From a virus (lineage: Duplodnaviria > Heunggongvirae > Uroviricota > Caudoviricetes), in the IMG/VR virus record IMGVR_UViG_2529292908_000016: 9,709 nucleotides of DNA. The stretch is one strand, 5' to 3'. A program made the position numbers and the translations under genes. Below the pieces are notes generated by a model. That model ran no database searches. It saw only the letters and a program-made list of their open reading frames with translations, and was not told the origin of the DNA. Shown here piece after piece: positions 3,722 through 9,709 of this stretch. The first letter of the stretch is position 1. Each line of letters starts with the position of its first letter.

Positions 3722-3922
3722 ATGCATCAGAAAACAGCAGAACACGAACAAACCAGAGTATTGCTGACCATCAAAAACGGGAAAGTAATATTCATTCGCC
3801 ATGTTCATGACGATGAACTTGTAGGAACTCTTTCAACATTCCTGTTTATTGCAGAAAAGGCAGGATATGACGTTATTGCACCAGCAGATGAAGATGAAGA
3901 TGAAGATGAAGATGAGGAATAA
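3722..3922 (+). CDS. Hypothetical small protein (66 aa) with a poly-acidic C-terminal tail (DEDEDEDEDEE)
   Basis: GGGAGA Shine-Dalgarno 5 nt before ATG at 3722. The C-terminal tail is encoded by a (GATGAA)4-GATGAG tandem repeat. The next gene starts 5 nt after the stop. Confidence 0.6.
   Translation: MHQKTAEHEQTRVLLTIKNGKVIFIRHVHDDELVGTLSTFLFIAEKAGYDVIAPADEDEDEDEDEE
3887..3916 (+). repeat. Tandem hexanucleotide repeat (GATGAA)4 plus GATGAG inside a CDS
   Basis: Read directly at 3887..3916; in frame, encoding alternating Asp-Glu. It also supplies the GAGGAA Shine-Dalgarno for the downstream gene. Confidence 0.9.
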
Positions 3923-4768: not shown

Positions 4769-5075
4769 CTCACAACTAACCATAGAAACGGCCCTGAATG
4801 TCGGCCTGGCGCTCCTTGGTTATTTTTACATCGTGTTCTGCAGCGGACGGTGGCTGTCGCTGTTGTTCCTGAAAAAATGGAATAAACGCCGTAAGCAGGA
4901 TGAACGCCAGAAGGCAATGAATGCGTTTTCCGAAGCCTTCGGAATTGACGGCATGGAACCAGGGGATCCAGCTCGCGCAATCAGCAGAGGGGGTGTAGTA
5001 ATCCTTGTATATCGGAGTGAAGAGAAAAATGACGATCACAAAACAACGAGTAGAAAAAATCATATATCGCCATGA
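4758..5075 (+). CDS. Small membrane protein (105 aa) with one predicted transmembrane helix followed by a basic stretch
   Basis: AGGT Shine-Dalgarno before ATG at 4758. Hydrophobic segment ALNVGLALLGYFYIVFCSGRWLSLLFL followed by KKWNKRRKQDERQK. Overlaps the next predicted gene by 47 nt. Confidence 0.5.
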   Translation: MATDSQLTIETALNVGLALLGYFYIVFCSGRWLSLLFLKKWNKRRKQDERQKAMNAFSEAFGIDGMEPGDPARAISRGGVVILVYRSEEKNDDHKTTSRKNHISP

Positions 5076-5343
5076 AATGGGACTGAACAGCGATGTCACT
5101 GCCGAAGAGGTTTATGACCTGGCTGTACTGGCGCTGAATTTATCAAATATCGCAAACCTGAAGCGATACGAGCTTGATATGGATGGTTGCGACTCGTGCG
5201 GTCAGGATTGTGGCGCAGATATGACTGAAGATCCTGATGGTGATTATGTCCTGTTTGATGACGTGGTTAAGTTGTTTGAATTTGATACAACCACTCAAAA
5301 GTTAGAAATCCCGGCAAAGGAGGCTGCCAGTGAGCAAGATTGA
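5029..5343 (+). CDS. Hypothetical acidic protein (104 aa)
   Basis: First ATG of the track ORF 5005..5343, with GGAG/AAGAGA upstream. Cys-rich acidic patch DMDGCDSCGQDCGADMTEDPDGDY. The 3' end overlaps the next gene start by 14 nt. Confidence 0.55.
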   Translation: MTITKQRVEKIIYRHEMGLNSDVTAEEVYDLAVLALNLSNIANLKRYELDMDGCDSCGQDCGADMTEDPDGDYVLFDDVVKLFEFDTTTQKLEIPAKEAASEQD

Positions 5344-5515
5344 CTATCAGGCACTGCGCGAGGCGGCGGAACAGGCAACGCAAGATGAATGGGTAGCATA
5401 TATTTTGCCGGGTCATAACGGCATTTATCCTGCGCGCACGTCTGAGGGTAGGCATTGTGCGGATACTTTATTGACTGGCCTGGCGTCTGTCAGGGGCGGG
5501 AGAGCATCAACATGA
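5330..5515 (+). CDS. Short ORF (61 aa) carrying an Ead/Ea22-like N-terminal module; possibly a gene fragment
   Basis: AAGGAGG plus GTG start; the first ~17 codons (MSKIDYQALREAAEQA) are paralogous to the start of the 6015..6692 gene. Stop overlaps the next ATG (ATGA). Confidence 0.4.
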   Translation: MSKIDYQALREAAEQATQDEWVAYILPGHNGIYPARTSEGRHCADTLLTGLASVRGGRAST

Positions 5516-6018
5516 GCATCAGAACCTACGCAGTGAATTGCAATGACGCATGGCTAAACACCGAAGGTGATGACATCTCCGGCTCATACGTTAAGTACAA
5601 AGACCATCAGGAAGTGGTTGCCGCTCTTGAGGCCAAGTGCGCGGCGCTGGCAGCGGAGAATGCGGGAATAAAGTCTGCAATTCCAGAATCACGGGATATT
5701 GAAGATGACAATGACAATATGGATGACGTATCTCTCGCGGAAGACTTCGGGTTCAATCATGCAATAGAACGGATGAGGAGACAGATACCTGAAACGCCAA
5801 CCACTGATGCTTTCCTGGCTGAAGTCCGGGCGCAGGGGGTGGATGCTGCTATAGAAGCTGCAAAAAATCTGGTGGCCCAAGAATATGAGTATAAGGATTT
5901 CAAAGCGGCGCAGAGTGATTGCTGTATGTACCCTGGTTCAGACCTGGTAGGGAAGGTTGAAATGACTGAGTGGTTAGTTGACTTTGCTGCCCAGCTTCGC
6001 AAAGGAGGCAACCAGTGA
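5512..6018 (+). CDS. Hypothetical protein (168 aa) with an Ala-rich predicted coiled-coil segment
   Basis: GGGAGAG Shine-Dalgarno 7 nt before the first ATG (5512) of track ORF 5455..6018. Segment HQEVVAALEAKCAALAAENAGIKSAIPE. Stop TGA overlaps the GTG start of the next gene (GTGA). Confidence 0.6.
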   Translation: MSIRTYAVNCNDAWLNTEGDDISGSYVKYKDHQEVVAALEAKCAALAAENAGIKSAIPESRDIEDDNDNMDDVSLAEDFGFNHAIERMRRQIPETPTTDAFLAEVRAQGVDAAIEAAKNLVAQEYEYKDFKAAQSDCCMYPGSDLVGKVEMTEWLVDFAAQLRKGGNQ

Positions 6019-6692
6019 GCGAAATTAATTACCAGGCACTGCGTGAGGTGGTGGAACGTGCAATTCCAGCAATGGAACGCCTGTTAATGTTGCCAGTTGA
6101 TGATGATTTGTTAAGTGAACAGGAACTTAAAGATTACGGTGTGGATATTGATGCGCTCAACGCCTTCAAATTTCTGACCGGACCAGAAACCGTGCTGGCA
6201 CTGCTGGATGAGATCAACGCATTAGAGGAAACGCGTATCAACGATGTTTGCCGTATTGCGGAACTAACAAAACAACTGGAGTTGGCAAAATCAAAACTCA
6301 ACGAGCAGCGTGAGTATTACGAAGGTGTTATCTCGGATGGAAGTAAGCGTATTGCTGAACTGGAGAAAAGCGAAGAGCAACTCATTAACGAGCGTGACCA
6401 TGCTGAGTCTGCTTTAGCTGATATGTATTTTGCAGCAACCGGGGATAGGCCTGAGTGGAGTAACTGGTTCGGTTTTTCAGATGCAGTAGATGCCGTAGTT
6501 GACAGAATTGCTGATTTAGAAGCTAAACAGCCATCGCCAGTAGTACCTGAAGGACTGATTAAAGCGGTGCGTTTTTATGAGCAGGTAAAACGTGAGAACC
6601 CGCCAGTCGAAACCGGAGCATGGAAAGACGCTGTTGACTGGGTGCTCAAAGAGGCTTGCCAGGCTGTAAACATTGGCATCAAAGGAGAGTGA
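6015..6692 (+). CDS. Ead/Ea22-like family prophage protein (225 aa), coiled-coil rich
   Basis: AAGGAGG 7 nt before GTG at 6015. N-terminus MSEINYQALREVVERA and the coiled-coil middle (LTKQLELAKSKLNEQREYYEG...ELEKSEEQLINER) match my recollection of the Ea22-like family. This is a recalled family assignment, not a search result. Confidence 0.65.
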   Translation: MSEINYQALREVVERAIPAMERLLMLPVDDDLLSEQELKDYGVDIDALNAFKFLTGPETVLALLDEINALEETRINDVCRIAELTKQLELAKSKLNEQREYYEGVISDGSKRIAELEKSEEQLINERDHAESALADMYFAATGDRPEWSNWFGFSDAVDAVVDRIADLEAKQPSPVVPEGLIKAVRFYEQVKRENPPVETGAWKDAVDWVLKEACQAVNIGIKGE

Positions 6693-6694
6693 GG

Positions 6695-6808
6695 ATGTTC
6701 AATAATTTGCCTGGTACTGGTTTTTCGTTGTTTTCGGTGTCATTTGCGCCGTTATTGGTTGGGCAGTTATTGAGTCCATTCTTTGGCTGCTTTCTTTCAT
6801 TCACATAA
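6695..6808 (+). CDS. Small hydrophobic peptide ORF (37 aa): MFNNLPGTGFSLFSVSFAPLLVGQLLSPFFGCFLSFT
   Basis: ATG 2 nt after the stop of the 6015..6692 gene, with AGGAGA at 6683..6688. Composition is strongly hydrophobic, consistent with a single membrane-spanning peptide. Below the track size cutoff. Confidence 0.3.
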   Translation: MFNNLPGTGFSLFSVSFAPLLVGQLLSPFFGCFLSFT

Positions 6809-6829
6809 CTATTGGTTGAGAACTGACCC

Positions 6830-7621
6830 ATGACCACTTTAACCGACAAAGAACTGATTAAAGAAATCAAAGAGCGTATAGGCAGCCTGGACATCCGAGA
6901 CAATATTGAGCGTCGGGCTTATGAAATTGCTCTGGCATCGCTGGAAGCAGAGGCAGTTATGTTCTGTATATCAGGACAAAATGTAGATTCAGAAGAACAT
7001 GTATCAACCAGCAAAGCGGTTGTTGATGCCTGGGTTGAAGAATGGAATCAGGTTGACAGAAGTCCTGGCGAACCACTGTACAAAACTATGCCACTCTACT
7101 ATCACGCTGCCTTGCCAGCGCCGGTAGTGCCGGAAGAAGCAACTCCGGAAAACGTAGAAATGCTCTCTGGCTATGTTTCCACGTACAAATTAACCGATAG
7201 CGAGCGCGATATTGCTGCCGAAATATGGAACGCCTGCCGCACCGCCATGCTTCAGTCCGGAAACTTTCGGGAAAGCAAGAATTCGTCAACCAATAATTTT
7301 CGGGAAATCCCGGAAGCGTCAACCAGCTCTCCGGTAACTCCGGCTCTTCTGCCTGGTGGTTTCACCATTGAGGAGGCGAAGGAATTACATGAAGACCTGG
7401 TACGCAGCCACATAAGCAAGGCCTTAAGTGGCGAAAAGATGAAAAAGAAAGATCGCGATGCTGATTTGCGCTGGATTCATGGCGTTATAGTTCAGGCAGC
7501 GTGGTTTGTAAAAGCATCACTGGAGCAGAATGCACTATCGGGCAACTCTCCGGTAACTCCGGATGGTTGGATAAGCTGTAGTGAGCGAATGCCGGACGAC
7601 AGGCAGGAGGTGAATCAATGA
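6830..7621 (+). CDS. Hypothetical prophage protein (263 aa) with internal repeats; C-terminus resembles the start of a DUF551-type domain
   Basis: Long ORF in the operon. Contains two exact 17-bp direct repeats encoding SPVTP and a duplicated NFRE motif. Ends with GWISCSERMPDDRQEVNQ, which resembles the W-[IV]-S-x-x-[DE]-R-[LM]-P opening of DUF551 as I recall it, cut short by the stop. Confidence 0.7.
   Translation: MTTLTDKELIKEIKERIGSLDIRDNIERRAYEIALASLEAEAVMFCISGQNVDSEEHVSTSKAVVDAWVEEWNQVDRSPGEPLYKTMPLYYHAALPAPVVPEEATPENVEMLSGYVSTYKLTDSERDIAAEIWNACRTAMLQSGNFRESKNSSTNNFREIPEASTSSPVTPALLPGGFTIEEAKELHEDLVRSHISKALSGEKMKKKDRDADLRWIHGVIVQAAWFVKASLEQNALSGNSPVTPDGWISCSERMPDDRQEVNQ
7327..7343 (+). 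repeat. 17-bp exact direct repeat CTCTCCGGTAACTCCGG, copy 1 (inside CDS)
   Basis: Identical 17-mer found again at 7546..7562; the 219-bp offset keeps both copies in the same reading frame (SPVTP). Confidence 0.9.
7546..7562 (+). repeat. 17-bp exact direct repeat CTCTCCGGTAACTCCGG, copy 2 (inside CDS)
   Basis: See copy 1 at 7327..7343. Confidence 0.9.
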
Positions 7622-8106: not shown

Positions 8107-8343
8107 ATGGGCAATGTGATTCAACTGGCTCCCAATGAATGGGTTTGTGAAAGCGTTCTTATCGCAATTACCGGGCTCAAACCAGGCACAATTCTTCGGG
8201 CCCGGAAAGAATGCTGGATGGTTGGAAGAGAGTATATTCACGTATCACCAGACGGTAATCCAAAGCCTTCCAGTGAATGTATGTATAACAGAAAAGCAAT
8301 AGATGCCTGGGTCGCCTCAATGAAAAACAAACAACCCAGGTGA
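8107..8343 (+). CDS. xis: Excisionase-like small DNA-binding protein (78 aa)
   Basis: GAGGT Shine-Dalgarno 5 nt before ATG at 8107. Lies immediately upstream of the integrase on the same strand, with size and basic/aromatic composition typical of winged-helix excisionases. The call rests on position and composition, not a verified domain hit. Confidence 0.65.
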   Translation: MGNVIQLAPNEWVCESVLIAITGLKPGTILRARKECWMVGREYIHVSPDGNPKPSSECMYNRKAIDAWVASMKNKQPR

Positions 8344-8398: not shown

Positions 8399-9709
8399 AT
8401 GGATAAAGTCAAATATCCAACAGGCGTCGAAAACCACGGCGGCACATTACGCATCTGGTTTAATTTTAAAGGTAAACGTGTCAGGGAAAATCTTGGTGTC
8501 CCTGACACTGCCAAGAACAGGAAGATCGCCGGGGAACTGCGGACATCAGTATGTTTTGCCATCCGCACAGGAAGCTTTGATTATGCTGCACAGTTCCCTG
8601 ACTCCCCCAACCTTCAGGCTTTTGGGGTAAGTAAAAAAGAAATTACGGTGAAGGAACTTGAAGAAAAGTGGCTGGATCTGAAACGAATGGAAATCTCTGC
8701 AAATGCATTCAATCGCTATGAATCCGTTGCAAGAACGATGGTTCCGAAAATTGGAGGCAGTAGACTGGTGTCATCGGTAACCAAAGAGGAATTGCTGTAT
8801 ATCAGGAAAGATTTGCTGACCGGGTATCAGAATTCAATGAAAAACAAAGCAGCAAAAGGACGGAGCGTTGTTACTGTAAATTATTACATGACGACAATCG
8901 CTGGAATGTTTCAGTTTGCTGCAGATCACGGTTACTTAGAAGCAAATCCCTTCCAGGGAATTAAGCCTCTTAAAAGAGCCAGGGCAGAGCCAGATCCGCT
9001 AACTCGTGACGAATTTATTCGCCTGATAGATGCTTGCCGACATCAGCAGACGAAAAACCTGTGGTCATTGGCTGTGTACACAGGAATGCGTCACGGTGAA
9101 CTGGTCTCCCTGGCCTGGGAAGATATCGATCTGAAGGCAGGAACAATTACCATCAGGCGCAATTATACGAAACTTGGTGAGTTCACTCTACCGAAAACTG
9201 AAGCAAGCACAAACAGGGTTGTGCACCTTATCCAGCCCGCTATCAGTGTCCTGAAAAATCAGGCTGAAATGACAAGACTGGGTAAGCAGTACAACATCAA
9301 GGTGCAACTACGTGAATATGGACGTTCAGTGAACCATGAATGTACTTTCGTGTTTAACCCTCAAGTGGTTAGAAAAAGCGAACAGGTAGGTTTTGTCTAC
9401 AAAGTCGATTCTGTAGGTGACTCATGGGAAACAGCCATTAAGCGTGCAGGGATCAGGCATCGAAAGGCATACCAGTCACGACACACTTATGCGTGCTGGT
9501 CATTATCTGCCGGAGCAAACCCAAGCTTCATTGCCAGCCAGATGGGCCATGCAAGTGCCCAGATGGTATTCAATGTATACGGAGCATGGATGACTGACAG
9601 CAATGCAGAACAGATCGCAATGCTGAATCAGAAGCTGACAGATTATGTCCCAATGATGCCCCATAGTCACCAAAGTGACACCAGAGGCTTATTAAAATCA
9701 GTAAGTTAA
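8399..9709 (+). CDS. int: Tyrosine-type site-specific integrase (436 aa)
   Basis: GGAGG Shine-Dalgarno 5 nt before ATG at 8399. Catalytic-domain hallmarks are present: TGMRHGEL (box I Arg), SRHTYACW (H-x-x-R region) and MGHASAQMVFNVYGAW (catalytic Tyr). The N-terminus YPTGVENHGGTLRIWFNFKGKRVREN looks like an arm-type DNA-binding domain. Stop TAA is the last codon of the window. Confidence 0.9.
   Translation: MDKVKYPTGVENHGGTLRIWFNFKGKRVRENLGVPDTAKNRKIAGELRTSVCFAIRTGSFDYAAQFPDSPNLQAFGVSKKEITVKELEEKWLDLKRMEISANAFNRYESVARTMVPKIGGSRLVSSVTKEELLYIRKDLLTGYQNSMKNKAAKGRSVVTVNYYMTTIAGMFQFAADHGYLEANPFQGIKPLKRARAEPDPLTRDEFIRLIDACRHQQTKNLWSLAVYTGMRHGELVSLAWEDIDLKAGTITIRRNYTKLGEFTLPKTEASTNRVVHLIQPAISVLKNQAEMTRLGKQYNIKVQLREYGRSVNHECTFVFNPQVVRKSEQVGFVYKVDSVGDSWETAIKRAGIRHRKAYQSRHTYACWSLSAGANPSFIASQMGHASAQMVFNVYGAWMTDSNAEQIAMLNQKLTDYVPMMPHSHQSDTRGLLKSVS

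Follow-up and report, generated by a model that had tools for sequence, protein, structure and literature searches.

Two tandem Ea22-like genes of a prophage share a start junction, and the first of them is split by a frameshift

The window analysed here is a stretch of 9,709 nucleotides (nt) of DNA from a virus of the Caudoviricetes (IMG/VR record IMGVR_UViG_2529292908_000016). It carries two tandem paralogous genes of the Ead/Ea22-like family, called A and B in what follows, in the early-left region with xis and int downstream of them. These neighbouring genes have their ribosome-binding site and first 16 codons in common, and gene A is broken by a frameshift, so that its front piece appears as a separate short open reading frame (ORF). 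The features of the region are given below, with annotations by the Prokaryotic Genome Annotation Pipeline (PGAP) where these exist.

5029..5343, plus strand: upstream hypothetical gene, 104 amino acids (aa) by PGAP in identical DNA (WP_001300189.1); its last codons cross junction 1 in a frame unlike that of junction 2.
5314..5329, plus strand: junction 1, upstream part, GCAAAGGAGGCTGCCA, with the Shine-Dalgarno sequence at 5317-5323; 14 of its 16 bases are those of 5999-6014.
5330..5378, plus strand: junction 1, coding part, GTG and the codons for MSKIDYQALREAAEQA, the Ead/Ea22 N-terminal motif (sequence, Pfam and comparison with lambda).
5330..5515, plus strand: 61-aa ORF, consisting of 42 native codons of gene A, 19 out-of-frame codons and TGA; PGAP, ead/Ea22-like family protein, WP_001300192.1.
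5330..6018, plus strand: Ea22-like gene A as a whole, frameshifted and split, 689 nt here and 687 nt (228 aa) in intact relatives (alignment).
5456..5459, plus strand: TGTG, in which TG is duplicated in tandem (2 bp), putting gene A out of frame; a single TG in intact relatives.
5498-5504, plus strand: GGGAGAG ahead of the ATG of the 168-aa ORF (sequence).
5512..5515, plus strand: ATGA, in which the ATG of the 168-aa ORF overlaps the TGA of the 61-aa ORF (sequence).
5512..6018, plus strand: 168-aa ORF, the rest of gene A, with Pfam Ead_Ea22 positions 48-138 and the C-terminal part; PGAP, WP_000027851.1.
5999..6014, plus strand: junction 2, upstream part, GCAAAGGAGGCAACCA, with the Shine-Dalgarno sequence at 6002-6008; it codes the C-terminal RKGGNQ of gene A and the stop (sequence).
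At junction 2, plus strand: GTGA, in which the stop of gene A overlaps the start of gene B (sequence).
6015..6063, plus strand: junction 2, coding part, GTG and the codons for MSEINYQALREVVERA (sequence and comparison with lambda).
6015..6692, plus strand: Ea22-like gene B, 225 aa; its match to Pfam Ead_Ea22 spans the full profile, and its identity to lambda Ea22 is 44% over residues 1-120.
6194..6211, plus strand: internal joint of gene B, coding LALLDE; the head found in O55/O111 prophages ends at 6211 and the body found in strain ExPEC XM begins at 6194.
6671..6692, plus strand: junction 3, the last 22 nt of gene B (..IKGE and stop), conserved among B alleles that otherwise differ.

All three consecutive ORFs exceed the gathering cut-off of 27 bits for the Pfam family PF13935 (Ead_Ea22; InterPro IPR025153). 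In the Pfam scan the 61-aa ORF matches profile positions 1-45 with 54 bits, the ORF at 5512-6018 matches positions 48-138 with 43.3 bits and gene B, the ORF at 6015-6692, matches positions 1-139 with 79.6 bits. Since the first two are adjacent and correspond to successive parts of the same domain model, they point to a single broken gene. Further downstream on the same strand are an excisionase-like ORF (8107-8343) and a tyrosine integrase (8399-9709). The DNA of Escherichia coli O111:H2 strain 12A (locus L001) is identical to the window over 5300-6030 and 99.7% identical over 5030-6211, and that of E. coli O55:H7 RM12579 is 100% identical over 5300-6030. In L001 PGAP annotates xisR and int adjoining mlrA, with the integrase abutting mlrA, and genes A and B belong to a lambdoid prophage of the mlrA-site type. 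Scans with Rfam and for tRNAs gave nothing inside the region of genes A and B, and a scan of 4900-6950 for promoters and terminators gave no more sites than in its shuffles. Sequence searches of the solved structures found no significant match for gene B or for the protein reconstructed from gene A (best E-values 0.3-0.9).

The nature of the 61-aa ORF is seen in the relatives of gene A. When 5300-6030 was compared with complete E. coli genomes by megablast, 52 records covered at least 80% of it. Many of these matches are 2 nt shorter than the window, and there PGAP annotates one 687-nt gene for an 'ead/Ea22-like family protein'; relatives with this single gene are 99.3-99.7% identical to the window. 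Matches that are 1, 3 or 4 nt shorter are flagged 'frameshifted' by PGAP. The only relevant difference in the alignment is that the window reads GCATTGTGCGG where intact relatives read GCATTGCGG, so that TG has become TGTG at 5456-5459. Removing one TG from the window restores a 228-aa protein identical to that of locus L003 (WP_033877702.1), and the 61-aa ORF must therefore be 42 native codons followed by 19 that are out of frame. The frame is lost after codon 42 of gene A and runs to the TGA at 5513-5515, which overlaps the ATG at 5512, where PGAP begins the tail ORF. The 61-aa ORF is thus the front piece of a frameshifted 228-aa gene, a mutational by-product, and the split gene A has probably lost or changed its function.

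The original prediction, which was made from the letters of the window, had suggested that the 61-aa ORF might be either a decapitated paralogue or a deliberately short product. It is a head rather than a headless copy, the rest being the ORF at 5512-6018, and the second alternative finds no support, the change from TG to TGTG being what separates the two pieces of one gene. The same gene in close relatives is labelled 'ead/Ea22-like family protein, frameshifted', as with other prophage pseudogenes flagged by PGAP; the TGTG allele differs from these in that its pieces are named as two proteins, WP_001300192.1 and WP_000027851.1. Both pieces are long enough and sufficiently like the family to be named by PGAP, which hides the lesion.

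The single direct repeat listed for the window pairs 5314-5378 with 5999-6063, ungapped over 65 nt and with 53 of the 65 bases the same (82% identity). The first copy heads the 61-aa ORF and the second the 225-aa ORF, both of which start at a GTG preceded by the Shine-Dalgarno sequence AAGGAGG (5317-5323 and 6002-6008). At the edges of the repeat identity is at background, with 1-3 of 15 bases matching just upstream of 5310 and 1 of 15 at 5385. When the whole window was shuffled 20 times in codon blocks, the top ungapped diagonal of 65 nt gave just 35-39 matches, which rules out chance similarity as the source of the repeat. The repeat consists of the translation start, AAGGAGG and GTG, and of the MS-I-YQALRE motif in the N-terminal helix of the two tandem Ead/Ea22-like genes. 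A repeated start segment at two genes, comprising the ribosome-binding site and first codons, had been predicted and is real, with a similarity beyond that expected by chance. The Shine-Dalgarno positions had been given about 1 base off, and to call the copies nearly identical was too strong.

Upstream of the two GTG starts 14 of 16 bases match between the copies (5314-5329 against 5999-6014). The sequence GCAAAGGAGGCAACCAGTGAGC also gives the last codons (RKGGNQ and stop) of the gene upstream, while the gene upstream of junction 1 uses another frame, in which its ORF reads through the GTGA and stops 10 nt later. As the upstream genes read the junctions in different frames, the identity at 14 of 16 positions is not explained by protein homology. 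The same GCAAAGGAGGCAACCAGTGAGC recurs ahead of Ea22-like genes that lie behind a DUF2737 gene, a methyltransferase and other upstream genes.

Pairwise BLAST of the window against other E. coli prophages or plasmids places edges of homology at the junctions. Homology to the window starts at 5314-5318 in five loci with five different upstream genes (L007, L010, L011, L012 and L013), ends at 5665, 5680, 5836, 5865, 6051 or 6211 depending on the locus and, after variable middles, resumes at 5984-5993, that is, at junction 2. Junction 2 (5984-6063) is an island between variable segments. Of a sample spread over the 704 E. coli records matching 5330-5530, more than half match only the first 35-55 nt of the gene. 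Breakpoints are therefore found at the boundary of the module, where the original prediction had suggested looking for them, and the modular shuffling that it proposed is supported by the conserved start segment, the mosaic breakpoints at its edges and the five upstream contexts.

Gene B is itself a recombinant of a head and a body. Its head, the first 65 codons (to 6211), matches L001 and L007, and the remainder (from 6194) is 99.2% identical to strain ExPEC XM, the overlap between the two being the codons for LALLDE. In ExPEC XM the first 32 nt of the gene are the same, but a different N-terminal domain follows and the gene upstream is unrelated. The best full-length match to gene B (5990-6720) among 5,426 complete E. 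coli RefSeq genomes is 92.8% identical, with no exact allele; head and body are each found separately at about 99%. The genome from which the window comes is therefore probably absent from this set, despite the full identity over 5300-6030 with two of its members.

The TG duplication in gene A provides a marker for the head segment. The TGTG allele is found behind the 104-aa hypothetical gene (in the mlrA prophage), a methyltransferase, a DUF2737 gene and a 645-nt hypothetical gene. Behind the last of these the TGTG gene has an alternative ATG start and is carried by plasmids of about 91-108 kb, and P1 records in the phage collection match this plasmid gene. Across the contexts the tail ORF has a length of 507, 444 or 414 nt. 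The presence of a rare TG duplication in at least four flanking contexts means that this head segment has passed from one phage background to another.

Lambda ea22 starts GTG-AGC-GAA-ATT-AAC.., coding MSEINSQALREAAEQA, and 15 of 21 residues of the gene A motif are identical to it; the corresponding residues of gene B are those given above for junction 2. Lambda and the genes described here thus have the GTG start, the N-terminal motif and the position upstream of xis and int in common. Gene B also has AKSKLNEQREYYEGVISDGSKRIA and the ..IKGE end in common with lambda, and it is similar in sequence to the lambda coiled-coil segment. In contrast to the single gene of lambda there are two tandem paralogues here, gene A has an extra N-terminal segment after the helix in addition to its frameshift, and the Shine-Dalgarno part of the junction is different. 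Since lambda shares the coding motif but not the Shine-Dalgarno region, the coding half of the module is a family signature. The C-terminal parts of A and B are without a match to the lambda C-terminal domain, which has been published and should be included in the set of solved structures.

Ea22 has been described as a mosaic, in which a common amino-terminal segment and coiled coil are joined to unrelated C-terminal domains (PMC10834534), and as pro-lysogenic despite its sequence diversity (PMC7093339). The central coiled coil, the formation of tetramers and the pro-lysogenic effect are known for Ea22 of lambda and of a Shiga toxin (Stx) phage (PMC7093339, PMC10834534). Mosaicism of Ea22 with a common N-terminus is therefore already published, and what is described here is an ordinary case of such mosaicism in phage genes, together with a frameshift allele that is common.

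Mosaic joints in lambdoid phages are reportedly flanked by short stretches of partial homology, called HR (homologous recombination) traces (Martinsohn et al. 2008, De Paepe et al. 2014). The islands here resemble these in lying at gene boundaries and within genes, flanked by unrelated or highly diverged sequence, and in recurring in many backgrounds. They differ in that the start junction is under direct functional constraint. With homology starting and stopping at the edges of a short island, the start junction qualifies as a lambdoid mosaic joint. Because it is functionally constrained, its conservation alone is no proof of its use in crossovers. Rad52-like phage recombinases act on short, diverged homologies, and intragenic pieces of about 100 bp are frequently swapped (PMC3945230). 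Relaxed homologous recombination by these enzymes has been proposed for such mosaic joints (PMC3945230).

Taken together, it is very probable that the start junction is conserved for translation and for the N-terminal helix, that it acts as a crossover island and that the 61-aa ORF is a frameshift remnant. Both genes use the standard start of the family, AAGGAGG, GTG and about 16 codons for the MS-I-YQALRE helix. The junction of about 65 nt would stay similar through its role in translation initiation, coupled to the upstream gene, and through coding the one N-terminal element common to all Ea22 proteins. By staying similar it would offer one of several short homology islands for crossover by phage or host recombinases, others being the hinge that codes LALLDE (6194-6211) and the end that codes ..IKGE (6671-6692). 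Prophages and P1-like plasmids would exchange heads, middles and tails by crossing over at these islands. The change from TG to TGTG at 5456-5459 shifts gene A after codon 42 and leaves the remaining 168 codons as the next ORF. It would seem likely that the junction is an actual recombination substrate, and the TG-duplication marker in at least four contexts suggests that recombination may also occur within the island itself.

Some observations weigh against this. Functional conservation alone would also put alignment edges at the junction, and lambda ea22, with the coding motif kept and the Shine-Dalgarno region different, indicates that the upstream 16 nt are not universal. Among the ORFs of the window, neither the list nor the Pfam scan showed a gene for a recombinase. 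The TGTG allele is also fairly common, at about 15% of matching records, and its downstream ORFs are open at the six loci examined, so that the split may be tolerated or, improbably, functional.

The first two of these observations would fit an alternative in which the similarity of the junctions reflects only the shared function and descent of two old paralogues and has no part in recombination. The retention of the coding motif in lambda behind a different Shine-Dalgarno region is as this would predict, the Pfam profile starts at the motif, and the RNA of the junctions is less structured than shuffles, as expected of an accessible start site; the z values for the folds of the two junctions and the ORF overlap were +0.9 to +1.5, with no structure beyond chance. 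Shared function does not, however, account for the use of identical codons at eight of the ten positions after GTG where A and B have the same amino acid, nor for the match of 14 of 16 upstream bases across different upstream frames. At least five unrelated genes also precede the junction in different loci, the points at which homology begins all falling within 5 nt, and the TG-duplication marker has moved between contexts. We therefore consider function and descent alone to be an unlikely explanation.

Whether the split of gene A might be selected depends on the distribution of the allele. An 81-nt probe centred on the lesion matched 228 E. coli records, and TGTG is present in at least 34 of them (about 15%), 33 being identical to the probe and one having TGTG and one single-nucleotide polymorphism (SNP); the other probe matches listed are 2 nt shorter. 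Records inspected without TGTG are unbroken or have different frameshifts, most of them with one continuous gene of 226-228 aa. The best 40 full-length matches, classified by match length, comprise 26 intact genes (226-228 aa), seven with TGTG and seven with a T deletion. A length of 61 aa is thus not conserved among homologues. The suggestion that would have undone the prediction, that the ORF is part of a longer gene in all homologues, holds for most of them, but at least 34 of the 228 records carry TGTG. A protein search with the 61-aa ORF as query yielded only 34 proteins, all of them short (33-106 aa), and no 228-aa relatives sharing the 42 identical residues; the search seems to favour proteins of similar length and is unusable as a length distribution, though other frameshift alleles were seen in it.

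Under a selected split, a head peptide of 60 or 61 aa and a headless protein of 168 aa would be made as coupled products via the ATGA at 5512-5515. The head region would then be a recurrent frameshift target that turns one pro-lysogenic protein into two coupled products of about 60 and 168 aa, and the split form would be kept and spread by recombination of prophages and P1-like phage-plasmids, altering the lysis-lysogeny balance or host fitness. Besides its frequency, the allele occurs in several prophage types and in P1-like plasmids, and both pieces are annotated as proteins by PGAP. The downstream ORF is open at all six TGTG loci examined, the gene at L004 having a further indel. Three independent lesions are confirmed in complete genomes, the TG duplication, the loss of a T from TTTT (L005, L006 and L014) and the loss of a G from GGG (L013), and further frameshift alleles are found among database proteins. 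The three confirmed lesions all lead into one frame and to a shared TGA; an in-frame ATG, preceded by GGGAGAG, overlaps this stop. This convergence needs no selection, however, since every -1 or +2 indel here necessarily leads into that frame, and the third frame has early stops, so that its products are unannotated and the sample is biased. The copies are 99-100% identical, which leaves no time for secondary decay. Aligned to 5499-5517, the genes of L007 and L012 have in-frame deletions of 6 or 12 nt that remove ATGAGC (Met61), and as both genes are intact Met61 is not a conserved start; the stretch 5499-5517 appears to be indel-tolerant. The C-terminal domain of lambda Ea22 alone does not reproduce the phenotype (PMC10834534). 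A selected split is thus improbable, and the same low credence applies to the head region as a target that yields coupled products.

Two further accounts of the overlapping ORFs are scarcely credible. Programmed -1 or +2 ribosomal frameshifting or transcriptional slippage could restore the full-length protein, as the two ORFs jointly span the Pfam domain, but inspection of 5456-5515 revealed no X XXY YYZ slippery heptamer in the frame of the first ORF and no homopolymer long enough for slippage, the fold of 5470-5540 is no more stable than shuffles (z = +0.9), the extra TG is simply absent from intact relatives and other alleles have their indels at other positions. A sequencing or assembly error is suggested by the position of the other indel alleles in short, error-prone homopolymers (TTTT and GGG), but is hardly to be believed for TGTG, which is not a homopolymer and is carried in identical form by 33 records unrelated in project, host and replicon type, and with a single SNP by one more. 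The slippage rates of contingency loci need long homopolymers or many-unit short repeats. A phase-variable contingency locus was rejected, the indel sites here (one TG to two, T4 to T3 and G3 to G2) being too short.

A few observations concern the neighbouring parts of the window. After gene B, the counterpart of a small ORF at 6696-6808 (plus strand) is labelled 'hypothetical protein, frameshifted' by PGAP in most relatives; in L008 and L011 small ORFs in a similar position are intact, at 189 nt, and 6696-6808 may be a second decayed gene. The 263-aa ORF at 6830-7621 (plus strand) matches only positions 1-16 of the 68 of DUF551, at its extreme C-terminus, where the domain appears to be cut short; its relatives are annotated as 'phage protein' (759 nt) or 'DUF551 domain-containing protein' (792 nt; 888 nt in ExPEC XM). 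At 3877-3920 (plus strand) a run of GAAGAT/GATGAA codes the acidic tail DEDEDEDEDEE at the end of a 66-aa ORF (3722-3922). On the minus strand, Rfam matches to the C4 antisense RNA (RF01695, 82 bits, 373-460) and isrK (RF01394, 62 bits, 485-561) lie downstream of a Rha-family gene (727-1434), and the arrangement resembles an antirepressor control module of the P1/P7 immI type carried within a lambdoid prophage. Where the DNA is identical, PGAP places a second Rha-family coding sequence on this strand, with a start near 630, which would cross both RNAs.

Beyond annotation the finding carries little weight. The 61-aa RefSeq protein WP_001300192.1 and its 168-aa neighbour are halves of one frameshifted Ea22-like gene. 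The locus is also a worked example of how short start junctions and internal hinges mark the mosaic joints of Ea22 in E. coli prophages and P1-like plasmids, with the TG duplication as a natural marker for the exchange of head segments of about 200 bp between phage backgrounds.

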